A stretch of DNA of 64,000 nucleotides from assembly GCA_052327205.1 (NCBI GenBank), contig CM126217.1, forward strand, positions 39,742,001-39,806,000, written 5' to 3'. A program made the translations under genes and the position numbers. The first letter of the stretch is position 1. Each line of letters begins with the position of its first letter. The notes under the pieces are model-generated. The model made no database searches. It was given only the letters and a program-made list of their open reading frames with translations, and was not told where the DNA came from. This document shows, in pieces, positions 1,419 through 40,122 of this stretch. Source of the DNA: Somniosus microcephalus. Taxonomy: Eukaryota.

Positions 1419-1740
1419 CAGGAAACTTTGGTTTATCCGGAGGTTATATGTCCGGAATACTCGATCTAACGGCAAAAATCAGGAGCCGTTTTCTATAAGT
1501 TTTTTTTAGTTCTCGTTGCTTTTTTTTCCCCCAGTCAGGCACTGCAAGGTCTGTAGCTATAGCAACAGCTTCAGCTAGAGATGCTTGCAGCTGCAGCCGA
1601 CTGTTTTGAAGCTGTTGCTAAGCAACAGGGTTTGTTGATTCACACGGAGCTTTTCAGTTCCGTAAGCTGGTATGTCCGGCACTTTTGATGGCACGGCACC
1701 AGCTCGGTCCCGTCAGTGCCGGATATCAGAAAGTTTCCTG
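1419..1740. mobile_element. MITE, Tc1/mariner-pogo type (copy 1), in the last DNM1L-like intron
   Basis: TIRs CAGGAAACTTT...AAAGTTTCCTG. TA on the left, CA on the right. Homologous to 54762-55084 and 61575-61887 in the opposite orientation. Confidence 0.85.
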
Positions 1741-1916
1741 CACTGCATTGTCATACCCTTATGTAGTAATTCTTACAATTTTATTTTATTGGTAAATTCC
1801 TGTGCCAAACAAGGTGAGGGATGCAGAACAGTTTATAAAAAAAAAAAATCACAAACTGTCAATCCAATCCAAATATGTGCAGAAACTGACCCTAAATGAT
1901 TTTTCTTCCCAAACAG

Positions 1917-1973
1917 GCCTTACAACGAGCCAGCCAGGTTATTGCAGAAATACGGGAAACCCACCTGTGGTGA
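1917..1973 (+). CDS. DNM1L: Dynamin-1-like protein, last coding exon
   Basis: Pyrimidine tract plus CAG acceptor (1914-1916), in phase with the previous exon. Encodes ALQRASQVIAEIRETHLW*, matching the Drp1 C-terminus. Confidence 0.93.
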   Translation, partial: ALQRASQVIAEIRETHLW

Positions 1974-4228
1974 ACCTCTTGGCCATACATCCTAGAGTTC
2001 CCTTGGATGGATACATCAATTACTTGAATGCTGCTGAATTGATAAATGCACTGTTTATTTGCTTACTGTGTAAAAATGTGTTTATAAACTGTCAGCTATG
2101 GCACTGAAAAGGAAACTACAGAAACCCAATGCCGTAAATCTCAAGCCCTTTATGTATTTCCTACTGAGCTTGTGTAATATTTGTTTCATAGTTCTGTGGT
2201 GGTACAAAATGCATTGTAAGTTTAAATTGGAAAATAGAAATCTTTGGAATCACACAATCCACTGATCTTGCCTCCATTCCAGCTTTTTGACCTCTCTGCA
2301 ATGTTTGCTCATTATGTAGGCAATGATATCCCATTAAGTTCATACAGTCTAGAAGTACTTGAAACAAATAATTTTTTGCATTGGCCATTTTTGCCTATGA
2401 AACACTTGAAATCATCACTTAATCTTTAGGGTGGTCCCATTAGGTGCATAAAAGATCTTTTTTACTTAGTTGTAGGTGCCCATATTGTTAAGAGCAAAGG
2501 ACCAAATGTCACTATGAAAATTTCTTCCTGGCCTGCACAAGTTACAAACTTGCAGATTTAGTAAATGCTAATATCTTTCCTGCCATGTTGTTCATGAGGC
2601 AGGACAAATTATGGGAGAAATGGAGGCTCAGGAATGTGAGAGAGCTCTGGGCCGAGGCAGTAAGTAGCAGGCTAAGGCCTGTCCGAGCATGAGACGCAGA
2701 GAGCAAGTAGCAGAAAAGGCTGATCCTGATTCTGAGAGGACCAGGGAGTAAGTGGCAGGAACCGTCCAGCAGACCTTATGCAGGTAAATTCAGACTTGCC
2801 TCTGTTGTTGTATCTCTACTGGGCTGAGTGTGGAGATTGAAGCAGGGAGCTGTTGTGACAGTTATGTCCTAGAGAAATATTTTTCTTAAGAAATTAGAAA
2901 CTGTAGAAATATGCAACCAATGAGAATGCAGACATGATGCAAGATTTAGTGATTATAGCTAGATACATGTAAAAAGGAACTTGCTGTTCCAGCAGTCAAT
3001 GAGAGTATGATGAAAGTACAAGCATCAACTATATTCTGCTCACCCAATCAAGCCAGAAATAACTGCTGATGCTATCTTTTTTTGTAGCTGGTTTACCAGT
3101 CTTGAGCTGCCATTTTTGGATGATGCAAAGTACATTTGCTGATACAAAAGGACATTAGATCTCTCATTGCATTAAGTTATCAAGTGTCCTCTATAAAGTC
3201 ACTCAGTACAGTATATGTGTGTAATACTGAAATGTTATTTTGCTATTTGATATTTTGTAATTTAACATTCAGCAAAGATTATTATACTTCAGATTTAACT
3301 TGCTACTTTTAGAAAAAATCCTTTGGTATAATTTCCCCTGCTTTCATTCTTATTCCCCTTCCCAAAAAATGAAGAAATTAAAAATTTGATACAAATATCA
3401 AGAGTCAAGGAATCAACCAATGGCACTTCTGGGCTCCAGGGATATTGGGATAGTTCCCAGTCCCTACTGGCTATCTGATTAGCAGTATCACTTATACTGT
3501 GTGCTGGAAGTGAGCACTTGTAATGTCATTTATTTTTTGGAGAGCCCCTAGTAGCTGGTCTGGTAGGGCCAAGGCTGCCCTTTGTACTATTGGTATAGGA
3601 GCAAGAAGACAATTAATAATCCGCCAACTATCTGTTCACAACCTGTCCACTGAAACTACTTGTAAGGAGCTGATGGTTACCGAGGACGGAAAATTGGTGC
3701 GAACATAAGGAACTAAGTTAAGTAAACTAAAAGCATTCAGGAAGTAACAACGGTGACGGCATCTAATCTTAGAACAAGGGACAGAATGGTGATACTTAAA
3801 GCTAAACCTGGTATTTGTACTATGAAGAGAGCCTGAGGAGATTGACTGAGAGTCATCAGCTGCTGTATTGTAAGTAAGAACTCAGTAGGATCTGAGAAAC
3901 AGGATTCAAATTTGGAACAGAACAAGGATTTGGTTTTTTTTAAACTATCGGTTGACTTAGAAATAAAAAGTTCCAGTTGTGTGAAAAGCTTGTTTCACCT
4001 TTTATCTCAAGGTTATTGGGTTAAAGGGTTTAACCTGAAGAATTACTTAAAACTGAGTGGTATGATGCATAAATTGGTTTTTCATGTTGTGATTTACAGA
4101 TTATATGATCGATTTGGTTAATGGTGCTTGAATTAGTGTGCGGTATTGTGTAATAATGATTGAAGTTAATGGATTAATCCATTGTAATCTTCCTAATAAA
4201 TGTAATTGGGTGTCAGTCAGGAAAATAA

Positions 4229-7200
4229 GTTTTTTTTAATTCGTTCATGGGATGTGGGCGTCGCTGGCAAGGCCAGCATTTATTGCCCATCCCTAGTTGC
4301 CCTTGAGAAGGTGGTGGTGAGCTGCTGCCTTGAACCGCTGCAGTCCGTGTGATCAGGGTTCTCCCACAGTGCTGTTAGGGAGGGAGTTCCAGGATTTTGA
4401 CCCAGAGACGATGAAGGATCAGCGATATACTTCTAAGTCAGGATGGTGTGTGACTTGGAGGGGAACTTGGAGGTGGTGGTGTTCCCATGCGCCTGCTGCC
4501 CTTGTTCTTCTAGGTGGTAGAGGTCGTGGGTTTGGGAGGTGCTGCCAAAGAAGCCTTGGCGAATTGCTGCAGTGCATCTTGTAGATGGTACACATTGCAG
4601 CCACGGTACGCTGGTGGTGGAGGGAATGAATGTTTAAGGTGGTGGATGGAGTGCCAATCAAGCGGGCTGCTTTGTCTTGGATGGTGTCGAGCTTCTTGAG
4701 TGTTGTTGGAGCTGCACTCATCCAGGCAAGTGGAGAGTATTCCATCACATTCCTGACTTGTGCCTTGTAGATGGTGGAAAGGCTTTTGGAGAGTCGGGAG
4801 GTGAGACGCTCGCCACAGAATACCTAGCCTCTGACCTGCTCGTGTTGCCACAGTATTTATGTGGCTGGCCCAGTTAAGTTTCTGGTCAATGGTGACCCCA
4901 CCTCAGGAGGGGGGGGATTCAGCGATAATAATGCTGTTGAATGTCAAGGGGCAGTGGTTAGATGCTCGCTTGTTGGATATAGTCATTGGCTGGCACTTGG
5001 TGTGGCGTGAATGTTACCTGCCACTTACCAGCCCAAGCCTGAATGTCGTCCAGGTCTTACTGCATGCGGGCATGGACTGCTTCATTATCTGAGGAGTTGC
5101 GAATGGCACTGAACACTGTGCAATCATCAGCGAACATCCCCACTTCTGACCTTATATTGGAGGGAAGGTCATTGATGAAGTAGCTGAAGATGGTTGAGCC
5201 TAGGACACTGCCCTGAGGAACTCCTGCAGCGATGTCCTGGGGCTGTGATGATTGACCTCCAACCACCACAACCATCTTCCTTTGTGCTAGCTATGAATCC
5301 AGCCAGTGGAGAATTTTCTCCCCGATTCCCATTGGCTTCAGTTTTACTAGGGTTCCTTAATGCCACACTCGACCAAATGCTACCTTGATGTCAAGGGCAG
5401 TCACTCTCACCTCGCCTCTGGAATTTAGCTCCATGTTTGGACCAAGGCAGTAATGATTCTGGAGCCGAGTGGACCTGGCGGAACCCAAACTGGGCATCAG
5501 TGAGCAGGTTATTGGTGAGTAAGTGCTGCTTGATAGCACTGTCGATGACACCTTCCATCACTTTGCTGATGATTGAGAGTAGACTGATGGGGCGGTAATT
5601 GGCCGGACTGGATTTGTCCTGCTTTTTGTGGACAGGACATAACTGGGCAGTTTTCCACATTGTCGGATAGATGCCAGTGTTATAGCTGTACTGGAACAGC
5701 TTGGCTAGAGGCGCGGCTAGTTCCGGAGCACAAGTCTTCAGCATGACAGTTGGGATGTTGCCACGGCCCACAGCCTTTGCTGTATCCAGTGCGCTCAGCC
5801 GTTTCTTGATGTCACGTTCAGTGAATCGAATTGGCTGAAGACTGGCTTCTGTGATGGGGGGACCTCAGGAGGCGGCCAATATGGATCATCCACTCGGCAC
5901 TTCTAGCTGAAGATGGTTGCAAACGCTTCAGCTTTGTCTTTTGCACTCAAGTGCTGAGCTCCACCATCATTGAGGATGGGGATATTTATGGAGCCTCCTC
6001 GTCCCATTAGTTGTTTAATGGTCCACCAGCATTCGTGGCTGGATGTGGCAGGACTGCAGAGTTTTGATCTGATCCGTTGATTGTGGGATCGCTTAGCTCT
6101 GTCTAGCATGCTGCTTCTGCTTTTTAGCATGCATGTAGTCCTGTGATGCAGCTTCCCCAGGTTGATACTGCATTTTTAGGTACGCCTGGTGGTGCTCCTG
6201 GTATGCTTTTCTACATTCCTGGCTTGATGGTAAAGGTAGAGTGAGGGATATGCTGGGCGATGAGGTTACAGATTGTGGTGGAATACAATTTTGCTGCTGC
6301 TGATGGCCCACAGTGCCTCATGGATGCCCAGTTTTGAGCTGCTAGATCTGTACTGAATCTATCCCATTTAGCACGGTAGTACCACACAACACGATGGAGG
6401 CTGTCCTCAGTGTGAAGACGGGACTTTGTTTCCACAATGGCTGTGTGGTGGTCACTGCTGCCAATACTGTCATGGACAAATGCATCTGCGACAGGTAGAT
6501 TGGTGAGTTACGAGGTCAAGTAGGTTTTTTCCCTCGTGTTGGTTCTCTCACCACCTGTCACAAGCCTAGACTGGCAGCTATGTCCTTCAGGACTCCTTCA
6601 GGACTCGGCAGCTCTGAGCCACTCTTGGTGAAGGACATTGAAGTCCCCCACCCAGAGTACATTCTGTGCCCTTGCTATTCTCAGCAATTCCTCCAAGTGG
6701 TGTTCAACATGGAGGAGTACTGATTCATCAGCTGAGCGAGGGCAGTAGTTGGTAATCAGCAAGAGGTTTCCTTACCTATACTTGACCTGAAGCCAGGAGA
6801 CTTCATGGGGTCCAGAGTCAATGTTGAGGACTCCCAGGGCCACTCCTTCCCGACTGTATACCACTGTGCCGCCAGTACCCCTGGTGGGTCTGTCCTGCCG
6901 GTGGGACAAGACATACCCAGCGATGGTGATGGAGGAGTTTGGGACATTGGCTGAAAGATATGATTCTGTGAGTATGACTATGTCAGGCTGTTGCTTGACT
7001 AGTCTGTGGGACAGCTCTCCCAATTTTGGCACAAGCCCCCAGATGATGGTGAGGAGGACTTTGCAGGGTTGACTGGGCTGGATGTGCCATTGTCATAGCC
7101 GGTGCCGAGGTCGATGCCGGGTGGTTCGTCTGGTTTTATTCTTATTGTTTTTGTAGTGGTTTTTTACAACTGAATGGCTTGCTAGGTCATTTCAGAGGGC

Positions 7201-7455
7201 AGTTAAGAGTCAACCACATTGCTGTGGGTCTGGAGTCACATATAGGCCAGACCAGGTAAGGATGGCAGATTTCCTTCCCTAAAGGACATTAGTCAACCAG
7301 ATGGGTTTTTAGTTTCATGGTCGTCATTACTGATACTAGCCTTTTATTCCAGATTTATTTAATTAACTGAATTTAAATTCCCCAGCTACCGTGGTGGGAT
7401 TTGAACTCACGTCTCCAGATCATTAGTCCAGTAACATAACCAGCATGCTACCATT
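4229..7455 (-). mobile_element. CR1-group non-LTR retrotransposon with a tRNA/SINE-derived 5' end, no ORF1, and a degenerate endonuclease + RT ORF2
   Basis: Minus-strand fragments read KVLLTIIWGLVPKLGELSHRLVKQQPDIVILTESYL (APE start), [23 protein letters not shown]. Several frameshifts. A-tail at 4229-4237. Pol III head at ~7385-7455. Confidence 0.88.
7150..7455 (-). promoter_or_regulatory. tRNA-derived SINE head and conserved body (resembles MetaSINE/SlmI type) forming the 5' end of the LINE
   Basis: A box TAGCATGCTGG (7450-7440), B box GTTCAAATCCC (7406-7396). Body ACTAATGTCCTTTAGGGAAGGAAATCTGCC...GTGACTCCAG is shared with the free SINE at 46717-47012. Family name is from memory. Confidence 0.75.
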
Positions 7456-7714
7456 TCCGATAAAGTTCAAGTAGTGAGCTGAATTTAAAACTAATTAATA
7501 CTCTTCAAGATTAAAATTTAATTCACAATCATACTCCTCTTGGAAATATTACATTCATAAACATTATTTTCCCCATGTGTGTGGGTATAATATATATATA
7601 TCATATAATTTGTATCTACTATTCAGTAGAGAGATGGTCTCCGACAAATGATTCGTCTGTGTTTTACAATCAGTTATGAGATCAGTTGTGATCTTAATCT
7701 TTACCATTAAGGTG

Positions 7715-9898: not shown

Positions 9899-10349
9899 CC
9901 TACACCATCCAGGACAAAACCACCCGCTTGATTGGCACCCATCCACCACCTTAAATATTCACTCCCTCCAGCTGTAGCTGCAGTGTGTACCAGCTACAAG
10001 ATGCACTGCAGCAATTCACTAAGGCTTCTTCGACAGCACCTCCTAAACCTGCGACCTCTACCATCTTAAAAGGACATGGGCAGCAGGTGCATGGGAACAC
10101 CACTACCTGCAAATTCCCCATCAAGTCACACCATCCTGACTTGGAAATATATTGCTGTTCCTTCATCGGTGCTAGGTCAGAATCCTGGAACTCGCTCCCT
10201 AACAGCACTGTGGGAGTACCTTCCCCTCACAGACTGCAGCGGTTCAAGAAGGTGGCTCACCACCACTTTCTCAAAGGCAATTAGGGATGGGCAATAAATG
10301 TTGGCTTTGCCAGCAATGCCCACAACCATGAACAAAACGTTAAAAAAAA
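9899..10349 (+). mobile_element. 5'-truncated copy of the 4229-7455 LINE family
   Basis: Matches the reverse complement of ~4240-4690 (GGGATGGGCAATAAATG...GCCCACA...A-tail). Confidence 0.85.
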
Positions 10350-13974: not shown

Positions 13975-16900
13975 AGGGGGAGAGAGAGAGTAGAGAGAAT
14001 GGGGAGAGAGACTGAGGGGGAGAGAGAGAGAAAAATGGGGGAAGGGAGAGAGAGAGACTGCGCGAGACTGAGGGGCGAGAGAGAAAAATGGGGGAAGGGA
14101 GAGAGAGAGACTGCGCGAGACTGAGGGGCGAGAGAGAGAGAAAAATGGGGGAAGGGAGAGAGAGAGACTGCGCGGCGAGAGAGAAAAATGGGGGAAGGGA
14201 GAGAGAGAGACTGCGCGAGACTGAGGGGCGAGAGAGACAGGGAGAGAGAGAGACTGGGGAGAGAGAGAGGCTGGGGAGAGAGAGACTGGGGGAGAGAGAG
14301 CGACTGAGGGGTGAGAGAGAGTAGAGAGACGGGGGAGAGAGAGACTGGGGGGGAGAGAGATGGGGAGAAAGAGAGAGACTGGGGGGGAGAGAGAGAGACT
14401 GGGGGGGGAGAGAGAGAGAGAGAGACTGGGGGGGGAGAGCGAGAGAGACGGGGGGGGGGAAGAGAGAGAGACGGGGGGAGGAGAGAGAGAGAGACTGGGG
14501 GGGAGAGAGTGGGGGGGAGAGAGAGGGGGGGAGAGAGAGTGGGGGGGAGAGAGAGACGGGGGGGGAGAGAGAGACGGGGGAGAGAGAGAGACGGGGGGGG
14601 AGAGAGAGAGAGCGACTGAGGGGTGAGAGAGAGTAGAGAGAGACTGGGGAGGAGAGAGATGGGGAGAAAGAGAGAGACTTGGGGGAGAGGGAGAGAGAGA
14701 GACTGGGGGGGGGGAGAGCGAGAGAGACTGGGGGGGAGAGAGACGGGGGGGGAGAGAGAGACTGGGGGGGGAGAGAGAGAGAGAGACGGGGGGGGGAAGA
14801 GAGAGAGACGGGGGGGAGGAGAGAGAGAGACTGGGGGAAAGNNNNNNNNNNNNNNNNNNNNNNNNNNNNNNNNNNNNNNNNNNNNNNNNNNNNNNNNNNN
14901 NNNNNNNNNNNNNNNNNNNNNNNNNNNNNNNNNNNNNNNNNNNNNNNNNNNNNNNNNNNNNNNNNNNNNNNNNNNNNNNNNNNNNNNNNNNNNNNNNNNN
15001 NNNNNNNNNNNNNNNNNNNNNNNNNNNNNNNNNNNNNNNNNNNNNNNNNNNNNNNNNNNNNNNNNNNNNNNNNNNNNNNNNNNNNNNNNNNNNNNNNNNN
15101 NNNNNNNNNNNNNNNNNNNNNNNNNNNNNNNNNNNNNNNNNNNNNNNNNNNNNNNNNNNNNNNNNNNNNNNNNNNNNNNNNNNNNNNNNNNNNNNNNNNN
15201 NNNNNNNNNNNNNNNNNNNNNNNNNNNNNNNNNNNNNNNNNNNNNNNNNNNNNNNNNNNNNNNNNNNNNNNNNNNNNNNNNNNNNNNNNNNNNNNNNNNN
15301 NNNNNNNNNNTAACTAGTGGTGTTCCGCAGGGGTCAGTGCTGGGTCCCCAACTCTTTACAATCTATATTAACGATTTGGAGGAGGGGACCAAGTGTAACA
15401 TATCAAAGTTTGCAGATGATACAAAGATGGGACGGAAAGTAATGAGTGAGGAGGACATAAAAAACCTGCAAAGGGACATAGACAGGCTAAGTAAGTGGGC
15501 AGAGATTTGGCAGATGGAATACAATACTGGAAAGTGTGAAGTTATGCACTTTGGCAGGAAAAATCATAGAGCAAGTTATTATCTTAATGGCAAGAAACTG
15601 GAAAGTACTGTAGTACAAAGGGATCTGGGGGTCCTGGTGCACGAAACTCAAAAAGTTAGTATGCAGGTGCAGCAAGTGATCAAGAAGGCCAATGGAATGT
15701 TGGCTTTTATTGCTAGGGGGTTGGAATATAAAAACAGGGAGGTATTGCTGCAGTTGTACAAGGTATTGGTGAGGCCGCACCTGGAATACTGCATACAGTT
15801 TTGGTGTCCATACTTAAGAAAAGACATACTTGCTCTCGAGTCAGTACAAAGAAGGTTCACTCGGTTAATCCCGGGGATGAGGGGGTGGTCATATGAGGAG
15901 AGGTTGAGTAGATTGGGACTCTACTCATTGGAGTTCAGAAGAATGAGAGGCGATCTTATTGAAACATATAAGATTGTGAAGGGGCTTGATCGGGTGGATG
16001 CGGTGAGGATGTTCCCAATGATGGGTGAAACTAGAACTAGGGGGCATAATCTTAAAATAAGGGGCTGCTCATTCAAAACTGAGATGAGGAGAAACTTCTT
16101 CACTCAGAGGGTGGTAGGTTTGTGGAATTTGCTGCCCCAGAAAGCTGTGGAAGCTATATCATTAAATAAATTTAAAACAGAAATAGATAGTTTCCTAGAA
16201 GTAAAGGGAATAAAGGGTTACGGGGAGCGGGCAGGAAATTGGACATGAGTCTGGGTTCGGAATGGTCATGGCCCTGTGGGTAGTGGAGCGGGCCCAGGGG
16301 CCGTGTAGCCTTGTTCTGCTCCTACTGTGTTCTAATTCTGTTAGATTTCAGGAGATGGTTTTATTCCTGTTCCTGGCTGGGGTGGAGATCGCCTTTACAG
16401 AAGGGAAGTACTGTAGAAAATATAGGGACAGAGTGATCTCCTGGAAGAATTTCGATCGCCCAGATGGGTCGGAGAGGAATTTCCCAGATTTTTTTCTCCC
16501 AAATTGGCCATTGGGTCTTTATCTGGTTTTTCGCCTCTCCCGGGAGATCACATGGGTTCGGGTGGATGCAGAGTGATAGAAGATTTGAGGTTAGGATCAG
16601 ATCAGCCATGATCTTATTGAATGGTGGAGCAGGCTCGAGGGGCCGATTGGCCTACTCCTGCTCCTATTTCTTATGTTCTTAAGAGAGAGAGGGGAGGGAA
16701 GGAGAGGGAGGGAAGGAAGGAGAGAGGGAAGGGGAGAGGAGAAGGAGGGAGGGAGGGAAGAGAGAGAGGGAAAGGGAGGGAAAGAGAGAGAGGGAAGGAA
16801 AGGGGGAAGGAGAGAGAGAGGGAGGGAAGGGAAGGAGAGAGGAGAGAGAGAGAGGGAGGGAAGGAGGGAGGGAAAGATGGAGGGGAAAGAGANNNNNNNN

Positions 16901-21877: not shown

Positions 21878-22187
21878 CCTGGAGAAAGCAGACACGCTGA
21901 AGATGGGCTGCTGAATTTTCTTAAGGTTTTTATCTTTTAAGTGTAGAAAAAGCTACTTCTAAAAGCTAAAGTTAACTTTAGTCAAAGAGAGAATGTGAGA
22001 GAGTTCAGTTTAGTTTAGTTTAGTTTAGTTTAAGTTAAGTTAAATTTAGATTAAGTACTAGAGCGCCAAAGGAAAAAAAAAACCCGGAAAAAAGAAAAAA
22101 AAAAGAAAAAGCCAGCGAGATAAACCCGGATTAGCGAGGCACCGAAACAGAGCCCGAGCAGCAGCACGGAGCCTGAACCGCGAGAAC

Positions 22188-22630
22188 GGAGACCGGGAGG
22201 AGCGGCCCGAACCGGGACAACAAGTAAGAGGCCTGGGGAGGGCGAACCCGAGAACGCGAGGCCCAGAGACCGCGGGATCGGAGATCGGGAGGAGCGGCCC
22301 GAACCGGGACAGCAAGTAAGAGGCCTGGGGAGGGCGAACGTGAGACCCAGAGACCGCGGGATCGGAGACCGGGAGGAGTGGCCCGAACCGGGACAGCAAG
22401 TAAGAGGCCTGGGGAGGGCGAACGCGAGGCCCAGAGACCGCGGGATCGGAGACCGGGAGGAGCGGCCCGAACCGGGAAAGCGAGTAAGAGACCTGGGGAG
22501 GGTGAACCCGAGACCACGAGGTCGGAGAACGGGAGGAGCGGCCCGAACCAGGACAGTGAATAAGAGGCCTGGGGAGGGTGAACCCGAGACCACGAGGCCC
22601 AGAGACAGCGGGATCGGAGACCGGGAGACC
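22188..22630 (+). repeat. About five CpG-rich monomers (~76-92 bp) in the LINE 5'UTR
   Basis: Unit GGAGACCGGGAGGAGCGGCCCGAACCGGGACAGCAAGTAAGAGGCCTGGGGAGGGCGAAC... recurs at ~22188, 22279, 22364, 22448 and 22524. Confidence 0.9.
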
Positions 22631-25721: not shown

Positions 25722-28700
25722 ATGCGTTCTTTCCACATAAGCTGCTGGAATATCCAGGGCCTCCGCTCCTCAACTTTTGGGATGAAGAGTACAGACCCTG
25801 AATTCCTAAAAGCTATAAAAGACATTGATATAATTGTGTTAACAGAAACATGGTGCCAAAAGGACGTGCCGACCCACTGTCCTCCAATGTACCATGAAAT
25901 CATTGTGCCCTCAGTAAAGAACACTAAAACACGCAAGGGCAGAACCTCCGGGGGAATATTGGTGTGGTATAAGGGAGAACTGGACAAACACATCTCACCG
26001 GTAAAACAGGGAAAATCACACGTATGGCTAAAACTAGATAAAAATATAGGAATAGCAAAAAAAGATGTTTACTTATGTGCGATCTACATACCTCCAATAG
26101 AATCGCCATATTTCGAAGAGGAGTTATTTGATACTCTCCACATGGAAATCAGCCATTTCCAGGCCCAAGGAAAGGTGATAATATGTGGGGACCTAAATGC
26201 AAGGACCGGTTGTGAACCTGACTTCATAGACCCACAGGGAAACAACCATGTGTTTGGCCAGACCCCTTTAGATGTCACACCAGCCATCGCAAATCGGAAC
26301 AACCTTGATCGTGAAATAAATAAAAGCGGTAGGGAGGTAGTGCAACTCTGCCGAGCCTTAGGCCTGTACATAGTTAACGGTAGGTTCAGAGGGGACTCCC
26401 TAGGGAGACTCACATACTCCTCAACTCTTGGGTCTAGTGTGGTGGACTATACAATCACTGACCTGGACCCCTCCGATATCAACTCATTCACTGTCAGGCA
26501 GCAATCCCCCCTCTCAGACCATAACCAAATAAATATGTACCTTAAACTTTCTGCCCAAACTACAGACACAAAAAAGGAACCCAGTAAGCTCCATAAAATA
26601 AACCAGACATACAGATGGGCCCCAGACAGTGGAGAAAAATTCATCACAGCACTAAAGTCACCTGATCTCACAAGTAAAATATCAAAATTTAAAGAAAACC
26701 CATACGAGATCACCAGAGATGGTGTAAACATGGCCATAGAGGATATAAATATGATCTTCCATGAGGCAGCTGTAAAAGCCGACCTTGTGAAACAGAAGAG
26801 GAAGCGTCACAAAAGACAAAATAAAAATAAGAAATGGTTTGACCACGAATGCAAAAATGCCAGAAAAGACCTGAGAAAAATATCAAACCAAAAGCATCGG
26901 CAACCAAACAATCCGGACCTACGTACTAGATACAATGAAACCCTCAAAAGATATAAACACACCATTAGGAACAAAACACAAAACTATACCCACAAAATAC
27001 TCGAAGAAATTGAAAACTCCACCAATCCAAAACAATTCTGGGAAATGTGGAATAACCTGAGTACAACACAATTGCAAGCATTACCAATCCAAGATGGCGA
27101 CATCTGGAGAACACATTTTGAAAACCTCTACAAAGACATCCCAATAAACGAAACAAACCCAAGTCAACATCAGGTCACAGAAAAACTCCACACATTAGAA
27201 GCAACAATTAAAGACAACCAAAACCCTCTAGACTCCCCAATCACATGGAAAGAACTGGCCACAAAAACAAAATCTCTCCACCTAAAGAAAGCCTGTGGCC
27301 CAGACAACATCAAAAATGAAATGCTCAAGTTCAGCAATATGGAGATGCAGGGTGCGGTCCTCAAATTATTCAACATCATATTACGTTCAGGCTGTTTTCC
27401 CGATATCTGGTGCCAAGGACTAATCTCCCCCATATATAAAAGTGGAAACAAATCAGACCCAAATAACTACCGCGGCATCTGTGTCAACAGTTGTCTAGGG
27501 AAGTTATTCTGCAGTATTCTAAATAGTAGATTACTTGATTTTCTTAACAAACATAATATCCTCAGAAAAAACCAAATAGGCTTTCTTCCAAAACACCGCA
27601 CCGCCGACCATATCTATACCCTTCACACCCTCATTGAAAAACATATACACCAAACAAAAAATGGGAAAATATTCGCCTGTTTCATCGACTTCAAGAAAGC
27701 CTTTGACTCTATATGGCACGAAGGGCTCTATTGTAAACTTCTTCAGTGTGGAATAGGGGGCAAAGTCTATGACCTTATTAAATCAATGTATCTGAAAAAC
27801 AAATGCGGGGTCAAAATTGGAGACAAACGCACCGATTTCTTCACCCAGAGAAGAGGCGTCCGGCAGGGCTGCAATTTGAGCCCGACCCTGTTCAACATAT
27901 ACATAAATGAATTAGCAGACATGCTGGAGCAAAGCGAGTCACCAGGTCTCCGTCTCCTGGATGGAGAAGTGAAATCCCTGTTCTATGCGGACGACCTGGT
28001 TCTGCTGTCTCCCACAGAACAGGGATTACAGCAACAACTAGACCTACTCGACAAATACTGCCAAAATTGGGCTCTAACAGTAAATCTAAAGAAAACCAAC
28101 ATCATGATTTTTCAAAAAAGGCCCAGATGTCAGGAAAACAAATACCAATTTACCCTCAGTGATACCGCTATAGGACACACTATGAGCTACACCTACCTTG
28201 GTCTAACTATTACAGCATCAGGGAGCTTCAGCATAGCAGTGAATGCACTAAAAGAAAAAGCCCGAAGAGCCCTATATGCAATAAAAAGAAAATTCTACAA
28301 CATCCAAATCTCAATCAAAATCTGGCTCAAAATATTTGACAGCATAATCCTGCCCATTGCACTGTACGGTAGTGAAGTATGGGGCCCGCTAAATCACCAA
28401 AGCTACACTAAATGGGAAAAACACACAATAGAAGCCCTACATGCAGAATTCTGCCGAAGCATCCTTCGCACCCAAAGAAAAACGCCAACAAATGCATGCA
28501 GAGCCGAACTAGGCAGATACCCACTGATAATAAACATCCAAAAACGAGCACTAAACTTCCTAAATCACCTCAAATCTAGCTCCCCAGACACCCTTCATTT
28601 CAAAGCCTTTCAGACCCAAGAGCTAAACCCAGAAAAGAGTCCCCTGAGTCAGCTGCTACTGAAACTAAGTACTCAGCCGGACCCTGACCAGCCCCAGACC

Positions 28701-29201
28701 AACACAGCCGTCCAAACACCAATCCGAGTGAACCAAATCATTAAACAATGCAAAGAAACCTACCTGGAACATTGGAACAAAATAACCGAAAGCCAAAGCA
28801 GATTAGAATGTTACCGGGCCCTAAAAAGAGATTATAAACTGGCAGACTACCTCACGACCATCAGAGACACAAAACAGAGACAGACCCTCACCAGGTACAG
28901 ACTAAGCGACCACCAACTGGAAATTGAAAAAGGCAGATACAAGAAATCCTGGCAGCCTAGAGAGAATAGAATATGCGATCAATGTCTGGCCGGCGAGGTT
29001 GAAACAGAAATGCATTTCCTCCTAAAATGCGAAAAATTCAACACATCAAGAAACATATTATTCAACAAGCTAAGCCAAACAACCCCAGATTTCAAGGAAT
29101 TGGATGACCTGTCAAAATTGAGATTAGTCCAGGGAGAAGGAGACAGACCATACCTTGGGGCCAAATATGTAACAACATGTCACAACCTGAGGACTGTTTA
29201 A
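25722..29201 (+). CDS. Intact LINE ORF2: AP endonuclease, reverse transcriptase and C-terminal Cys/His domain (1159 aa)
   Basis: WNIQGL, LTETW, GDLNAR, SDH (endonuclease); NYRGI, QIGF, DFKKAFD, GVRQG, YADD, YLG (RT); CDQC...EMHFLLKC. No stops or frameshifts. Confidence 0.95.
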   Translation: MRSFHISCWNIQGLRSSTFGMKSTDPEFLKAIKDIDIIVLTETWCQKDVPTHCPPMYHEIIVPSVKNTKTRKGRTSGGILVWYKGELDKHISPVKQGKSHVWLKLDKNIGIAKKDVYLCAIYIPPIESPYFEEELFDTLHMEISHFQAQGKVIICGDLNARTGCEPDFIDPQGNNHVFGQTPLDVTPAIANRNNLDREINKSGREVVQLCRALGLYIVNGRFRGDSLGRLTYSSTLGSSVVDYTITDLDPSDINSFTVRQQSPLSDHNQINMYLKLSAQTTDTKKEPSKLHKINQTYRWAPDSGEKFITALKSPDLTSKISKFKENPYEITRDGVNMAIEDINMIFHEAAVKADLVKQKRKRHKRQNKNKKWFDHECKNARKDLRKISNQKHRQPNNPDLRTRYNETLKRYKHTIRNKTQNYTHKILEEIENSTNPKQFWEMWNNLSTTQLQALPIQDGDIWRTHFENLYKDIPINETNPSQHQVTEKLHTLEATIKDNQNPLDSPITWKELATKTKSLHLKKACGPDNIKNEMLKFSNMEMQGAVLKLFNIILRSGCFPDIWCQGLISPIYKSGNKSDPNNYRGICVNSCLGKLFCSILNSRLLDFLNKHNILRKNQIGFLPKHRTADHIYTLHTLIEKHIHQTKNGKIFACFIDFKKAFDSIWHEGLYCKLLQCGIGGKVYDLIKSMYLKNKCGVKIGDKRTDFFTQRRGVRQGCNLSPTLFNIYINELADMLEQSESPGLRLLDGEVKSLFYADDLVLLSPTEQGLQQQLDLLDKYCQNWALTVNLKKTNIMIFQKRPRCQENKYQFTLSDTAIGHTMSYTYLGLTITASGSFSIAVNALKEKARRALYAIKRKFYNIQISIKIWLKIFDSIILPIALYGSEVWGPLNHQSYTKWEKHTIEALHAEFCRSILRTQRKTPTNACRAELGRYPLIINIQKRALNFLNHLKSSSPDTLHFKAFQTQELNPEKSPLSQLLLKLSTQPDPDQPQTNTAVQTPIRVNQIIKQCKETYLEHWNKITESQSRLECYRALKRDYKLADYLTTIRDTKQRQTLTRYRLSDHQLEIEKGRYKKSWQPRENRICDQCLAGEVETEMHFLLKCEKFNTSRNILFNKLSQTTPDFKELDDLSKLRLVQGEGDRPYLGAKYVTTCHNLRTV

Positions 29202-29400
29202 AATTAATATTGAACGTACCAAATGAAGTACAAAGACTGTTTAAAATTAATATTGTTTAAAAGTAATATTGTATGTACCCAACAAATGTCAAATCGATTG
29301 ACACCTACAGAATGTTTGAAAATGTACCTTTTTGCTATGTAAGCTTTGGCAATATGGTTCTCTGTAAACTTTCATGCCAATAAAGCATTTGAATTGAATT

Positions 29401-29779
29401 GAGAGAGATTGGGAGTGTGAGAGAGAGAGAGAGATTGGGAGTGNNNNNNNNNNNNNNNNNNNNNNNNNNNNNNNNNNNNNNNNNNNNNNNNNNNNNNNNN
29501 NNNNNNNNNNNNNNNNNNNNNNNNNNNNNNNNNNNNNNNNNNNNNNNNNNNNNNNNNNNNNNNNNNNNNNNNNNNNNNNNNNNNNNNNNNNNNNNNNNNN
29601 NNNNNNNNNNNNNNNNNNNNNNNNNNNNNNNNNNNNNNNNNNNNNNNNNNNNNNNNNNNNNNNNNNNNNNNNNNNNNNNNNNNNNNNNNNNNNNNNNNNN
29701 NNNNNNNNNNNNNNNNNNNNNNNNNNNNNNNNNNNNNNNNNNNNNNNNNNNNNNNNNNNNNNNNNNNNNNNNNNNAGAT

Positions 29780-29819
<40 letters not shown>

Positions 29820-32163
29820 AGTGAGAGAGAGAGAGAGAGAGATTGGGAATGAGAGAGAGAGAGNNNNNNNNNNNNNNNNNNNNNNNNNNNNNNNNNNNNN
29901 NNNNNNNNNNNNNNNNNNNNNNNNNNNNNNNNNNNNNNNNNNNNNNNNNNNNNNNNNNNNNNNNNNNNNNNNNNNNNNNNNNNNNNNNNNNNNNNNNNNN
30001 NNNNNNNNNNNNNNNNNNNNNNNNNNNNNNNNNNNNNNNNNNNNNNNNNNNNNNNNNNNNNNNNNNNNNNNNNNNNNNNNNNNNNNNNNNNNNNNNNNNN
30101 NNNNNNNNNNNNNNNNNNNNNNNNNNNNNNNNNNNNNNNNNNNNNNNNNNNNNNNNNNNNNNNNNNNNNNNNNNNNNNNNNAGAGAGATTGGGAGTGGGA
30201 GTGAGAGAGAGAGAGAGAGAGATTAGGAGTGAGAGAGAGAGAGAGATTGGGAGTGAGAGAGAGAGAGAGAGATTGGGAGTGAGAGAGAGAGAGAGAGATT
30301 GGGAGTGAGAGAGAGAGAGAGATTGGGAGTGAGAGAGAGAGAGAGAGAGATTGGGAGTGAGAGAGAGAGAGAGAGAGATTGGGAGTGAGAGAGAGAGAGA
30401 GAGAGAGATTGGGAGTGAGAGAGAGANNNNNNNNNNNNNNNNNNNNNNNNNNNNNNNNNNNNNNNNNNNNNNNNNNNNNNNNNNNNNNNNNNNNNNNNNN
30501 NNNNNNNNNNNNNNNNNNNNNNNNNNNNNNNNNNNNNNNNNNNNNNNNNNNNNNNNNNNNNNNNNNNNTGAAACAGAGATGCATTTCCTCCTAAAATGCG
30601 AAAAATTCAACACATCAAGAAACATATTATTCAACAAGCTAAGCCAAACAACCCCAGATTTCAAGGAATTGGATGACCTGTCAAAATTGAGATTAGTCCT
30701 GGGAGAAGGAGACAGACCATACCTTGGGGCCAAATATGTAACAACATGTCACAACCTGAGGACTGTTTAAAATTAATATTGAACGTACCAAATGAAGTAC
30801 AAAGACTGTTTAAAATTAATATTGTTTAAAAGTAACATTGTATGTACCCAACAAATGTCAAATCGATTGACACCTACAGAATGTTGGAAAACTGTACCTT
30901 TTTGCTATGTAAGCTTTGGCAATATGGTTCTCTGTAAACTTTCATGCCAATAAAGCATTTGAATTGGAAATTGGAATTGGAATTGGAGAGAGAGAGATTG
31001 GGAGTGTGAGAGAGAGAGAGATTGGGAGTGAGAGAGAGAGAGAGATTGGGAGAGTGGGAGNNNNNNNNNNNNNNNNNNNNNNNNNNNNNNNNNNNNNNNN
31101 NNNNNNNNNNNNNNNNNNNNNNNNNNNNNNNNNNNNNNNNNNNNNNNNNNNNNNNNNNNNNNNNNNNNNNNNNNNNNNNNNNNNNNNNNNNNNNNNNNNN
31201 NNNNNNNNNNNNNNNNNNNNNNNNNNNNNNNNNNNNNNNNNNNNNNNNNNNNNNNNNNNNNNNNNNNNNNNNNNNNNNNNNNNNNNNNNNNNNNNNNNNN
31301 NNNNNNNNNNNNNNNNNNNNNNNNNNNNNNNNNNNNNNNNNNNNNNNNNNNNNNNNNNNNNNNNNNNNNNNNNNNNNNNNNNNNNNNNNNNNNNNNNNNN
31401 NNNNNNNNNNNNNNNNNNNNNNNGAGAGATNNNNNNNNNNNNNNNNNNNNNNNNNNNNNNNNNNNNNNNNNNNNNNNNNNNNNNNNNNNNNNNNNNNNNN
31501 NNNNNNNNNNNNNNNNNNNNNNNNNNNNNNNNNNNNNNNNNNNNNNNNNNNNNNNNNNNNNNNNNNNNNNNNNNNNNNNNNNNNNNNNNNNNNNNNNNNN
31601 NNNNNNNNNNNNNNNNNNNNNNNNNNNNNNNNNNNNNNNNNNNNNNNNNNNNNNNNNNNNNNNNNNNNNNNNNNNNNNNNNNNNNNNNNNNNNNNNNNNN
31701 NNNNNNNNNNNNNNNNNNNNNNNNNNNNNNNNNNNNNNNNNNNNNNNNNNNNNNNNNNNNNNNNNNNNNNNNNNNNNNNNNNNNNNNGATTGGGAGAGAG
31801 AGATTGGGAGAGAGAGATTGGGAGAGAGAGATTGGGAGAGAGAGAGAGAGAGATTGGGAGAGGGAGAGAGAGAGAGAGAGAGATTGGGAGAGAGAGAGAG
31901 ATTGGAGAGAGAGATTGGGTGATAGAGAGAGAGAGAGAGAGAGATTGGGAGAGAGAGATTGGGAAGAGANNNNNNNNNNNNNNNNNNNNNNNNNNNNNNN
32001 NNNNNNNNNNNNNNNNNNNNNNNNNNNNNNNNNNNNNNNNNNNNNNNNNNNNNNNNNNNNNNNNNNNNNNNNNNNNNNNNNNNNNNNNNNNNNNNNNNNN
32101 NNNNNNNNNNNNNNNNNNNNNNNNNNNNNNNNNNNNNNNNNNNNNNNNNNNNNNNNNNNNNNG
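29401..32163. repeat. (GA)n-ATTGGGAGT satellite, heavily N-masked
   Basis: Repeated GAGAGAGATTGGGAGT(GA)n units of variable length. Confidence 0.9.
30569..30986 (+). mobile_element. Second 3' end of the RTEX-like LINE
   Basis: Near-identical to 29000-29400 with a few substitutions. Tail GAATTGG-type. 5' junction hidden by Ns. Confidence 0.85.
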
Positions 32164-32166
32164 GAG

Positions 32167-32782
32167 TACTCAGCCGGACCCTGACCAGTCCCAGACCAAC
32201 ACAGCGTCCAAACACCAATCCGAGTGAACCAAATCATTAAACAATGCAAAGAAACCTACCTGGAACATTGGAACAAAATAACCGAAAGCCAAAGCAGATT
32301 AGAATGTTACCGGGCCCTAAAAAGAGAATATAAACTGGCAGACTACCTCACGACCATCAGAGACACAAAACAGAGACAGACCCTCACCAGGTACAGACTA
32401 AGCGACCACCAACTAGAAATTGAAAAAGGCAGATACAAGAAATCCTGGCAGCCTAGAGAGAATAGAATATGCGATCAATGTCTGGCCGGCGAGGTTGAAA
32501 CAGAAATGCATTTCCTCCTAAATGCGAAAAATTCAACACATCAAGAAACATATTATTCAACAAGCTAAGCCAAACAACCCCAGATTTCAAGGAATTGGAT
32601 GACCTGTCAAAATTGAGATTAGTCCTGGGAGAAGGAGACAGACCATACCTTGGGGCCAAATATGTAACAACATGTCACAACCTGAGGACTGTTTAAAATT
32701 AAGGCTGTTTAAAATTAATATTGATGTACCAAATGAAGTACAAAGACTGTTAAAATTAATATTGTTTAAAAGTAATATTGTA
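32167..32782 (+). mobile_element. Third 3' fragment of the RTEX-like LINE
   Basis: Matches ~28668-29272 with small indels. Bounded by Ns on both sides. Confidence 0.85.
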
Positions 32783-33282
32783 NNNNNNNNNNNNNNNNNN
32801 NNNNNNNNNNNNNNNNNNNNNNNNNNNNNNNNNNNNNNNNNNNNNNNNNNNNNNNNNNNNNNNNNNNNNNNNNNNNNNNNNNNNNNNNNNNNNNNNNNNN
32901 NNNNNNNNNNNNNNNNNNNNNNNNNNNNNNNNNNNNNNNNNNNNNNNNNNNNNNNNNNNNNNNNNNNNNNNNNNNNNNNNNNNNNNNNNNNNNNNNNNNN
33001 NNNNNNNNNNNNNNNNNNNNNNNNNNNNNNNNNNNNNNNNNNNNNNNNNNNNNNNNNNNNNNNNNNNNNNNNNNNNNNNNNNNNNNNNNNNNNNNNNNNN
33101 NNNNNNNNNNNNNNNNNNNNNNNNNNNNNNNNNNNNNNNNNNNNNNNNNNNNNNNNNNNNNNNNNNNNNNNNNNNNNNNNNNNNNNNNNNNNNNNNNNNN
33201 NNNNNNNNNNNNNNNNNNNNNNNNNNNNNNNNNNNNNNNNNNNNNNNNNNNNNNNNNNNNNNNNNNNNNNNNNNNNNNNNNN
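32783..33282. other. Scaffold gap of exactly 500 N
   Basis: Round length, unlike the other N runs. Purine strand bias flips from GA to CT across it. Confidence 0.85.
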
Positions 33283-33846: not shown

Positions 33847-36800
33847 ATGGAGAAAATCCTTAGACCTATTCGTCTGGACTTGGACCCGAATGCACCAGCA
33901 GCTGGCAGGGTATGGAAGCATTGGTACCGTACTTTTGAGAATTTTCTGGATGAATGTGAAGCGGATGCTCCTGCTAGATTGAAGATACTTATCAATTATG
34001 TGACCCCAAAAGTGTTCGAATATGTTGATGAATGGGATAATTACGATGAGGTGATTCGGGCACTTAAGAAACTGTATGCCAAGACCCCAAATGAGGTCTA
34101 TGCTAGACATCTACTGGCCACAGCCCGACAAGGGCCAGGGGAATCAATTGACGAATTCCTGCAAGAACTTCGCAGGCTCAGCGTAGATTGTAACTTTCAG
34201 GCAGCCTCAGCTGAGCTGTACCGCCAAGAAATGATTCGTGATGCTTTCATCTGCGGGATTGCCTCTCCATTTATACGCCAGCGTCTACTAGAAAGTAAAA
34301 CACTTGAGCTACAAAAACTTTTGACCTAGCTTGTTCACTGGATTTGGCAAAGAGAAATGCAGACCTCTATCAGCTGCCCAGATCTCGATCTGCTGCTGTA
34401 GCTGCAACCAGACAATTCAAGCGGTCTCAGGTGAACCCTATCATGGGGGAATATAATTCTGATAATTCTGATGAAGAAGAGGAGGACGACCCCACTTTAG
34501 CAGCCTCTTGGCAATCTAGGAAGGAATGCTTCTTTTGTGGAGATGCTTTTCACCCTAGGAAAACCTGCCCTGCTCGCAATGCAATCTGCAGTTATTGCAG
34601 GAAAAAAGGACACTTTGCTAAAGTTTGCCTATCAAGGGCCTCTACGAGGACCAATCCAGCTAAGGCCTACCGAACTGCCCCAATTAGGGCCTATCAAGAT
34701 GCTCCAGCTAGGACCTATCAAGCTTCCTCTCGAGCTCTCTCCCGAAGAAGCACACCGAGAGTTTTAGCCACTCTCTGTGCAACGACACCAATTACAGCTG
34801 CTTGCCCACAGAACCTGTCTCATGCAGCCACAAAAATTTCAATTAAAGGGCATACCTTAGATGCCTTAATTGACTCAGGAAGTACTGATAGTTTCATTAA
34901 GGAACAGATTGTTGCGAAATTGAAACTACATGTCTTCCCATCGGACCAGGCAATTGCGATGGCCCAGTCATCACTTAATACCAGAATCTCCGGCTTTTGT
35001 GTTGTTGATATGACACTTCATGGTCGTATGTATCCCTCCACCCGACTTTCGGTGCTCAAGGACTTATGTAGTGATCTCCTCTTAGGACTGGACTTCCAAA
35101 AACAGCACAAGAAACTCACCATTGAGTTTGGTGGATCCAAACCCGGACTTACTATTTCTAATATACCGTCTAAATTACCATTTTGTGCATTATCAGCAGC
35201 TTCATTTGATGAACCCTCATTATTTGCCAGTATTCCGCCTCAATGCCAACCGATAATAACGAAATCGCGGCGCTTTAATCAGGAAGACCAATCTTTTATT
35301 GCGGCTGAAATCTCTCGACTTCTAGCAGAGGATATCATTGAACCATGTTCGTCGCCCTGGCGGGCTCAAGTCGTCATTGTCAAGAACCCTCTAAAACCTC
35401 ACAAACAGCGACTATGCATCGATTATTCGCAAACCATCGATCAATATACCGACTTGGACGCCTACCCATTGCCACGCATTGATGATATGGTTAATAAACT
35501 GGTCGAATACAAAGTGTTCTCAACTTGCGATTTAAAAAGTGCCTATCATCAGTTACCCTTGAAGGTCTCAGATAAGCAGTACACAGCCTTTGAGGCTAAT
35601 GGACGGCTGTACCAATTTCGTCGCCTCCCATTCGGGGTTACTAATGGAGTGGCTGTCTTTCAACGGGCAATGGATGGCCTGGTTAAGCAGGAAAACCTAA
35701 GGGACACTTTTCCCTATCTTGATAACATTACCATTGCAGGTCACGATCAACAGGAACACGACTCCAACCTCCCAAAATTTCGGGATGCCCTCCATCGCCG
35801 TAATTTGACCCTGAATGAATCCAAATCTGTTGAGTCGCAACCGACCATCAACATCCTTGGCTACTGCGTAGGCAATGGTATCATTAAGCCAGACCCAGAA
35901 AGACTTCGCCCGCTCCAAGAGCTCCCGTCACCTAAGAATCCGGCTTCTTTACGTCGGGCTCTCGGTCTGTTTGCATACTACGCTAAATGGATTCCTCATT
36001 TTTCGGACAAAATCCAACCCTTGCTGCATGCTAGATCATTTCCACTGGGAACAGCGGCTGTTGCAGCCTTTAACCTTCTCAAAAAACAGTTGGAGAAAGC
36101 GGCTCTTCACTCCATTGATGAGAATCTCCCTTTCGTGGTTGAATGTGATGCCTCGGAGGTGGCGATCTCGGCTACTCTGAATCAGGAAGGTCGTCCTGTA
36201 GCATTTATGTCCAGGACCTTACAAGGTGCCGAGCTACATTATCCTCCGGTTGAGAAAGAAGCCACAGCCATCATAGAGGCGGTACGGAAGTGGAACCATT
36301 TTCTAGCTCGCCAGCACTTTACATTGATCACGGACCAACGATCAGTCGCCTTCATGCTCGATAATCGAAAACGAACCAAAGTTAAGAATAATAAAATACA
36401 ACTTTGGAGGATGGAACTGGCCTCTTTTGGTTATACCATTCTCTATCGGCCTGGCAAGGAGAATGTGGCCCCGGACACCCTCACACGGGCATTCTGCTCC
36501 ACTATGTCATCCTCCACCCTCATGGATGTCCACAATGGTTTGTGTCATCCTGGCGTTACGCGCATGCTACATTTCGTACGATCACGGAATCTCCCTTTTT
36601 CCACTGGAGATGTAAAGAAAATATGCTCAGAATGCCGGCTTTGTGCGGAATTAAAACCTCAGTTCTTCCGCCCCTCAGATGGTATACTCATACATGCAAC
36701 CCAACCGATGCAATGACTTAGCATCGATTTTAAGGGCCCAGTGCCCTCTTCAACTCGGAACACATATTTGCTCACCATGATCGACGAATATTCACGTTTT

Positions 36801-38915: not shown

Positions 38916-39317
38916 TTTTTTGGGGGAGGGGGATTTTAATATTTAAATGATGCAACCACCCAAAAGAGATGGATGCTGGCTCCCTCCACTCCTCAACCCC
39001 CACTATATAAATCAGGCAAATCCAACTGGGAAACGGGAAGTCTAGGTGTCGCTGTCCACACTGATACATGACAAGCGTTGGCTTGGGCTGGGACCCCACA
39101 CATGGCCAGCACCCACAGAACTGTACCCAGCAAGAGTCAGTGTCTTCAGGGAGGAGAGCATGGAAAGAAGCTATTGTGCTGTTGGTTGTATGGACAGTGC
39201 ACAAAGCTGGGCAATTGTTTCTTCATAACACTCCCCCTTCTACCAGCAGATGGCCCTGTTAGAACTCGTAACTGAGCGGAATTATTCAGAACAGATCATC
39301 AAACCTACTTACACCTC

Positions 39318-39498
39318 AATAGGAACATAGGAACAGGAGGAGGCCATTCAGCCCCTCAAGCCTGTTATATAGGAACAAGAGTGGGCCATTCAGCCCCTCA
39401 AGCCTGTTATATAGGAACAGGAGGAGGTCATTCAGCCCCTCGAGCCTGTTACATATGAACAGGAGTAGGTCATTCAGCTCCTCAAGCCCATTACATAG
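39318..39498 (-). repeat. ~41-bp minisatellite made of CR1 3' tail units (4 copies, resuming at ~41897)
   Basis: Unit ATAGGAACAGGAGGAGGCCATTCAGCCCCTCAAGCCTGTTAT. Confidence 0.8.
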
Positions 39499-39502
39499 AA
39501 TA

Positions 39503-40122
39503 CTAGCTGGGGGAGCCCGGCTTTGCCAGGGCTGTTTTGGGCCGGGCGGTTTAAATCGAGTCCCAGGCTTTGGGGCCTGTCTGTCTGTCTGTCCCTGTGT
39601 GAATCTGCTGCCGGGCAACATTTCTACCTTTTAATAGCTTCAAAGATGAAAGTGAAAGTACTTTTAAAAATTACATAACATTTACCAAAAATGTTTTATA
39701 AGAGATACTAACTTTTTCGAAGCTGGATTAGCAGAGTTTGAGCTGGAAGTAGTGAAGCAATGGCTGCCCGATGCCGGAGTTGAAAAGCATTAGTCCCGCC
39801 CACAGACGCAGCGATTGGCCAACCATCAGGCGACTGAACTGTAGGATTGGTCAATCGTGCCGGCACAGGATTGGTCGACCTTGACGTCAGTCAATCAATG
39901 CTACTTAGCAGATAATGAGTTTAATTTTGAAGGTTTTTTGCATAACGCGCGAACAATTTTTGTCCGGCCGAAACGTAAATATGCTTAGGACGGTTCTGGA
40001 ATCGTCAGCTTTCTTTTGACGTAACGCACGTGTAGGTACGCTCTATAACTTGAGAGTTAATTCAAGACAGACAGACAGACGGAATGACAGACAGAAGTAT
40101 CCTTTAATTTTATATATATAGA
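39503..40122 (-). mobile_element. Complete 620-bp non-autonomous Helitron
   Basis: Minus strand A|TCTATATATATAAAA...(CTGT)n...GCCCTGGCAAAGCCGGGC hairpin...CTAG|T. No TSD. Removing it restores AGAATATGAGAGTAAA, which is repeated just downstream. Confidence 0.92.

Follow-up and report, generated by a model that had tools for sequence, protein, structure and literature searches.

A multi-copy family of shark retrotransposons, real and under selection, unites in one element of about 3.3 kb a tRNA-derived head of the kind found at the front of short interspersed elements (SINEs) and the endonuclease-reverse transcriptase reading frame (ORF2) belonging to a long interspersed element (LINE). The copy studied here lies in a stretch of 64,000 nt of Somniosus microcephalus that we call the window (GCA_052327205.1, CM126217.1:39,742,001-39,806,000, forward strand), where it occupies the minus strand from 7458 to 4229, with an A box, a B box and a SINE-like body running directly into the endonuclease frame. 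We consider it probable, judging from the sequence, that the family is an autonomous LINE, which RNA polymerase III (Pol III) likely transcribes into an uncapped RNA of ~3.3 kb, whose non-AUG translation would be set by a highly conserved core; that its transcription and translation are unusual is very probable. The first-pass annotation of this DNA had proposed a SINE-headed autonomous LINE avoiding Pol III terminators, and the junction, the T-run and the selection data now support that proposal, the Pol III step itself being deduced from them.

The window copy (all its features are on the minus strand) starts at 7458 with the tRNA-derived head (7365..7458), in which we confirm the A box at 7450-7440 and move the B box from 7406-7396 to 7408-7397, using the usual box consensus sequences; ARAGORN found no tRNA gene, and Rfam gave for the head tRNA-like matches only, all of them sub-threshold. 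An AT-rich linker without any run of four T (T4) follows (7310..7364, with ~13 nt missing at its 3′ end in this copy), and then the highly conserved core (7164..7309), a candidate ribosome-recruiting element that ends in the TAA preceding ORF2 and whose last hairpin (7170..7195) has one mutated stem base here. The whole ORF2 (4293..7163) contains a basic N-terminal leader without AUG (7066..7163; 33-36 codons, with a private frameshift in this copy), an apurinic endonuclease-like (APE) domain (6432..7065, end approximate) and a reverse transcriptase (RT) domain (4887..5624, limits approximate, with FADD at 5134-5123), and on a sister copy Pfam recognises APE (PF14529, PF03372) and RT (PF00078) in one frame. 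The 3′ tail (4229..4292), common to the short SINE forms described below, comprises AATAAA at 4284-4279, a hairpin and a GAA(T)n(A)n end. As the annotation had it, this copy looks inactive, its ORF2 being broken into 7 aligned pieces in 3 frames with 14 stops (counted over partly overlapping pieces), and its first in-frame AUG, at 6321-6319, lies downstream of the entire APE endonuclease domain.

That a SINE merely happened to lie beside a truncated LINE here is refuted because the junction is multi-copy, and nothing in favour of it was found: a 301-nt junction query returned 6095 candidates, all 40 of the 40 that were scored span the junction at 90-100% identity (the 39 besides the window copy at 90-93%), and a pattern spanning the B box up to the start of the ORF gave 403 exact matches, against 0 with its reversed control. 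The copies analysed were these 39, 20 copies of a subfamily B (96-98% identical to their query) and 20 chosen by internal ORF2 queries, 2 duplicates being removed from the last set for the later counts, which cover 78 copies. Thirty-three of the 78 extend to the A box, column conservation starts 8 nt upstream of it, and the flanks upstream of the 33 are unrelated, with 1 of 528 pairs similar and at different offsets; 8 of the 20 ORF2-chosen copies reach the head, and the others are 5′ truncated without common upstream sequence. No full-length copy examined has an ORF1 or another common 5′ region, so that the absence of ORF1 noted in the window copy holds throughout, and the dispersed copies, with their 5′ truncation, common 3′ end and A or repeat tail, behave as LINE copies do. 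Independent target-site duplications (TSDs), which the annotation had suggested as a check, are essentially absent, there being none of at least 7 nt in 16 full-length copies and 5 matches of 5-6 nt at chance level. Subfamily B is a well-supported branch among the copies of subfamily A, in a tree whose bootstrap is not settled, and two old degraded copies used as queries for a third independent lineage returned subfamily A copies only. One young B copy (L091) interrupts a family member that is very old (72%), and another B copy has an A-type tail (L103:3740-3790), possibly by template switching between subfamilies.

Beyond this genome, named shark protein records carry fragments of the family at 71-88% identity, whale shark gene models fuse a core-derived peptide to the endonuclease, and sequencing runs of 9 organisms contain all or part of the element (23 of 24 rows, some at small shares), with no RNA dataset among the runs listed as containing it. 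In the four runs that we examined, whose contigs carry no strand, start or expression information, the contigs of run X1 end at the same 5′ and 3′ limits and include a 6-nt insertion in the ORF leader, and a contig of run X5 bridges the junction.

In ORF2 of this family, copy L100 has a natural open frame of 967 codons. With the commonest codon per column as yardstick for comparing subfamilies A and B, the ratio of non-synonymous to synonymous divergence (dN/dS) is 0.14 (endonuclease), 0.15, 0.22 (RT) and 0.15, with dS of 0.17-0.31, and the frame is thus under the purifying selection expected of an autonomous element. It is therefore very improbable, and already largely refuted, that the long form is a non-autonomous passenger, that is, a SINE with a dead ORF2 moved by another LINE; the lack of an AUG before the endonuclease and the two in-frame stops upstream of ORF2 would agree with such a passenger, but both stops are carried on the branch of the young subfamily B, between which and A these dN/dS values were obtained, and the 967-codon frame is equally at odds with it. 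The first common in-frame AUG of the family is codon 281, beyond the endonuclease, so the observation that no in-frame AUG precedes the endonuclease, made at first on the window copy, holds family-wide, and the non-canonical translation proposed with it is supported because the endonuclease upstream of that AUG is under purifying selection. A TGA reported at ~7094 is indeed present, but it is a CpG decay product (7 subfamily A copies in that codon column), and the frame of the family is open beyond it, back to the TAA at 7166-7164. A sequence search of the PDB with the N-terminal 280 aa gave no endonuclease match, and no 2A motif is visible in the family ORF.

The leader, from the TAA to the endonuclease, is a multiple of three in 36 of 44 A copies and 22 of 22 B copies and recurs in length classes of 102, 108 and 111 nt, all of which keep the frame; since the extra codon of the 111-nt class lies near codon 7, translation likely begins before ~codon 7. 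The leader RNA contains 9-11 upstream AUGs, none of them usable for ORF2, and the in-frame AUG 9 codons upstream was rejected as a start codon because 66 of 67 copies have a stop that closes it.

Vertebrate Pol III stops at T4 or longer, and its transcripts lack an m7G cap. As first annotated, the window copy is free of sense TTTT, with 0 T4 in 3227 nt against 21, 8 and 8 runs of four A, C and G (A4, C4, G4), and the first one (4222..4225) lies in flanking DNA past the A-tail (4236-4229), so that no sense T4 precedes the end of the element, as is expected of a Pol III unit; on the plus strand, the longest AAAA-free stretch of the window (3265 nt) is at the element, the next (2594 nt) in an N-masked area. 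The strong signal is that of the family together with its controls, a single copy giving a modest one. The first set of 40 copies, that of subfamily A, has 22 T4 in 100.5 kb, the 20 subfamily B copies have 4 in 57.6 kb and 18 ORF2-chosen copies 10 in 45.5 kb, that is, 0.07-0.22/kb in the family against 2.0/kb in 20 CR1 copies of the same genome (93 in 46.7 kb), and these few runs look post-insertion because no T4 site of the first set is common to more than 2 copies. The observed/expected ratio of TTT is 0.33-0.38 in 6 family copies, whereas two long CR1 copies reach 1.05 and 1.15 and the metagenomic relatives (54 of 80 long enough to test) do not fall under 0.71, none of the relatives tested from metagenomes or metagenome-assembled genomes (MAGs) being depleted to the family level. 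As the annotation had foreseen, T4 is thus much rarer in the family than its background level, which is not the case in the controls. Interrupted T runs are also depleted in the family, AAA and GGG are not, and CCC is so mildly (0.73-0.79). When the natural open frame was redrawn with synonymous codons, 3.1-5.2 T4 were expected (probability of none, P0, 0.03-0.003), 0 of 42 codon pairs capable of T4 form it where 5.4 would be expected, and phenylalanine, at 19.6 per 1000 residues, is scarcer than in any full-length relative of two overlapping sets (81 and 59) that were tested.

An RT tree of 30 rows places the family among short ORF2-type elements from invertebrate sources, and the CR1 of the same genome lies across a 100/100 split (midpoint-rooted tree, one CR1 reference), so the earlier assignment to the CR1 group did not survive: neither an RT grouping with CR1 nor an ORF1 upstream of ORF2, the strict marks of the CR1 clade, was found. 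The closest full-length relatives have 41-45% identity and about 930-990 aa and sit on 3-4 kb contigs, which suggests that ORF1 was missing before the head was gained. Invertebrate relatives mostly have predicted Met starts and normal T runs, so that a LINE without ORF1 is likely to have taken up the head; a basic leader is likewise found in most relatives. One relative begins MATKKN where the family reads TATKNN (a short, weak match). More distant relatives were found at 80 loci on metagenome contigs, 1 of the 80 with an upstream B-box-like motif, and at 4 loci on MAG contigs, and none on viral contigs.

Such relatives lend some weight to another view, in which the family would be an ORF1-less LINE with a captured SINE as 5′ untranslated region, with a capped RNA that RNA polymerase II (Pol II) would make either from the head or through read-through, its T avoidance being due to composition or some other pressure. 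ORF1-less APE elements are known (PMC3894237), the size of the relatives and of their contigs agrees, and the relative L240, which has low T, an ATG start and no visible head, is nearly free of T4. We nevertheless regard this Pol II origin as unlikely, since the family has a constant 5′ end at the tRNA +1 region and is poor in TTT and in interrupted T runs but not in AAA and GGG, and its many unusable upstream AUGs fit cap-dependent scanning poorly. The stretch that holds L240 (L240:1-3099) is on a contig filed in a bacterial MAG and is probably eukaryotic contamination.

The conserved core is where the initiation of ORF2 may be decided. Subfamilies A and B differ at 2 of 147 core positions, against 18 of 85 in the head and 16 of 90 in the linker, and the core divergence is lower than even the non-synonymous rate of ORF2; the subfamily changes within the A and B boxes stay inside the box consensus. 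The core, like ORF2, is thus under selection, and it is a putative Deu domain. Its last hairpin has a 7-nt loop, CU-AGC-AA, with an in-frame GCU 12 nt past the hairpin base, and this loop resembles, as a lead only, a tRNA-Ala anticodon loop facing the GCU; recurrent variants of the hairpin affect loop position 33, turn a G-C into a G-U pair or alter a bulge, and the loop variants keep AGC. The comparison that suggests itself is with the intergenic region (IGR, type 6) internal ribosome entry site (IRES) of dicistroviruses, which is likewise a conserved element of ~150 nt before a non-AUG frame, with an anticodon-like hairpin and an in-frame GCU, and whose pseudoknot I (PKI) mimics an anticodon-codon pair before the non-AUG codon (PMC10516663, PMC12221177). 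The two differ in that the shark element, whose non-AUG frame also lies directly downstream, has no Rfam model match, no recognised PKII, L1.1, SLIV or SLV motifs, a pairing of 3-4 bp without covariation, and a retrotransposon as host; IGR-type IRESs in non-LTR elements have been raised as hypothetical only (PMC3894237).

The same hairpin contains, in the family, an in-frame AUG-GCC-UAG mini-ORF, and this offers a different account of the initiation step alone, in which Pol III transcription would stand, but the ribosome would load at the mini-ORF and re-initiate at an in-frame ACG, or reach ORF2 by leaky read-through. The AUG, which 65 of 67 copies possess, is in frame with ORF2 and in good context, the fourth codon is most often ACG in B and equally often ACG or its CpG-decay form in A, and the translation of L1 ORF2 is AUG-independent and perhaps a re-initiation (PMC11485995); on the other side, this AUG sits in a hairpin stem within a region conserved base by base, and two whale shark gene models suggest that its frame relative to ORF2 is not fixed (a weak point, back-inferred from protein). 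We hold this re-initiation to be a possibility of modest weight, about as likely as the pseudoknot for the initiation step. The whole chain in its boldest form, a shark autonomous retrotransposon with a Pol III mRNA translated without cap or initiator tRNA through a tRNA-mimic pseudoknot of the Deu domain, is likewise a possibility of modest weight.

Several results weigh against a Pol III-made, core-initiated LINE and should be kept in mind. The polymerase, the cap state and the start codon are predictions from sequence, and A and B are one lineage (dS about 0.2), not independent replicates. For the T runs, the ~6 T4 first put forward as the chance expectation for the window copy become a mean of 4.9 with mononucleotide shuffles (P0 0.007) and 2.25 with dinucleotide shuffles (P0 0.08), so that the single copy is not significant; the proposed comparison with synonymous shuffles, favourable for the natural open frame, gave no individually significant result for 8 partial ORFs (P 0.14-0.57); and L240, with 1 T4 in 2784 nt and a TTT observed/expected ratio of 0.69, indicates that composition alone can nearly remove T4. 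For the initiation, no compensatory change beyond noise and no supported pseudoknot was found in the core over 79 aligned rows, the AGC:GCU pairing of 3-4 bp was noticed post hoc, Rfam returned no IRES family for the window copy and a young leader at E up to 1 or 10, and the leader folds only slightly better than its shuffles (z -1.45). The low divergence of the core could come in part from recombination with the many head-bearing copies, and the N-terminal leader, with 0 synonymous and 5 non-synonymous changes, bears no sign of protein-level constraint. One fold showed the 5′ end pairing over a long range with the ORF leader, an idea that was dropped, given that the A head does not keep this pairing.

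If the Pol III-made LINE is nevertheless the right reading, transcription by TFIIIC and Pol III would begin ~8 nt upstream of the A box and run until a first T4 is met, either in the tail or in the flank, and selection would have removed T runs from the element, down to its low use of phenylalanine. The core would then position the ribosome, with decoding beginning no more than ~6 codons past the TAA; our preferred, though tentative, guess for this initiation is a pseudoknot between the anticodon loop and the GCU, as in the dicistrovirus IGR. The ORF2 protein would bind the 3′ tail and insert new copies by target-primed reverse transcription without TSDs, and internal deletions would repeatedly yield SINEs made of head, core and tail.

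Short forms of this kind are present in the genome, where a head-to-tail pattern was matched exactly at 67 places (0 for the control), the junction strings were of 11 kinds and the heads are 72-95% identical to those of the long form, and similar head-tail skips occur in the four sequencing runs mentioned above. They fit repeated internal deletion, although tail decay may explain part of the junction variety, and they may be SacSINE1-like. The long element shares with SINE2 elements the A and B boxes at its 5′ end; at 3.3 kb and with a selected ORF, it is neither short nor non-coding and non-autonomous, which only its deleted forms are. At the tails, a T run of at least 4 lies within 18 nt around the A tail in 20 of 79 cases, against 8.4% of flank windows, so that a terminator of its own is present in some copies. 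The AATAAA, variable T run and A tail of the 3′ end recall the T+ SINEs (B2, Can; PMC9599045), which are non-coding and mammalian. Of 17 subfamily B tails, 16 have lost AATAAA; T+ polyadenylation was dropped as a required step, subfamily B being without AATAAA.

The short forms have the layout of the DeuSINE superfamily (SacSINE1, LmeSINE1, SINE3, AmnSINE1), known in shark as a tRNA head, a conserved central domain and a LINE-type tail (PMC5499810, PMC4824008), the tail being matched at 78.6% to L2-2_CM (PMC5499810) or given as 'CR1-4_DR-like' (PMC3747384). In these accounts, DeuSINEs are non-coding and have only the tail in common with the partner LINE, whereas here the head and the core are the 5′ end of a coding element. 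The bipartite non-autonomous LINEs and SINEs of Kojima 2018 (PMC5786205) also arise as short elements by internal LINE deletion, but that model starts from a Pol II-made LINE and lets the small-RNA head join once the deletion has occurred, whereas the shark head is already on the coding element; in the Repbase comparison of the same source, the only LINE 5′ parts detected within SINE bodies were those of RTE and Vingi. Closest in build among coding elements are the ORF1-less APE-RT LINEs (Ingi/L1Tc, Vingi and the 2A-bearing ones), which have a single endonuclease-RT frame as here (PMC3894237); we know of no account of a Pol III head or of T-run avoidance in these, and the shark family, in which no 2A is visible, has a basic N-terminal leader as its own relatives do.

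The mode of expression proposed here would have a likeness in R2, whose uncapped transcript is not made by Pol II and whose single ORF is initiated non-canonically, as would be the case in the shark family. R2 is co-transcribed by Pol I in rDNA and has a ribozyme, a restriction-like endonuclease and no promoter of its own. We would also count ZfL2-2 and UnaL2 among the ORF1-less APE-RT LINEs.

What is new in this family hinges on the putative Pol III step, without which the element would be a variant of the ORF1-less LINE. If it is true, coding LINEs made by Pol II and non-coding SINEs made by Pol III would no longer be the two separate classes of the textbooks, and a vertebrate would have a natural 3.3-kb protein-coding Pol III transcript; should the boldest form of the chain hold as well, the Deu domain would be a ribosome-binding RNA, acting as an IRES in this LINE and letting SINE RNAs wait on ribosomes for the LINE protein. 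We know of no function for the Deu domain, conserved as it is in SINEs across animals. Conserved SINE central domains are described as being of unknown origin and function (PMC4824008, PMC5786205, PMC5499810), and a core that adjoins an AUG-less ORF and is more conserved than its protein makes the question of their function testable. Our literature search found no description of a SINE-headed coding LINE; Repbase/Dfam and subscription journals were outside its scope, and an existing record is possible.

Some minor observations concern single copies and the rest of the window. In copies L106 (506-600) and L058, the anticodon arm of the head is followed by a second hairpin; the subfamilies differ at 3 pairs of its 5-bp stem, which still pairs, and the anticodon position of their head reads AGT. 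Copy L034 contains an inserted 436-codon open frame (about 1700-3010, minus strand), which we take to resemble a Harbinger-type transposase. Further fragments of the same family lie in the window at 9902-10349 (+), 43492-43669 (-), 53275-53443 (-) and 46766-46905 (-), and they amount to two 3′ ends, one RT piece and one isolated core piece. Ordinary young CR1 fragments, belonging to the control family, are at 15313-16280 (+), 40725-41900 (+), 44852-46590 (-), 48400-49624 (-) and 63290-64000 (-); another LINE ORF2, A-rich (39% A, 44 A4) and distant from both families, is at 26826-28289 (+), and a Gypsy-like gag-pol fragment at 33886-35933 (+). Blocks of several hundred bases, duplicated at 99%, occur at 28709-30868 and 32205-32794 amid GA-rich simple repeats, and tandem arrays at 59793-60243 (~78 nt), 22177-22627 (~84 nt) and 39285-39536 (~42 nt), the 42-nt unit of the last resembling a CR1 3′ end.

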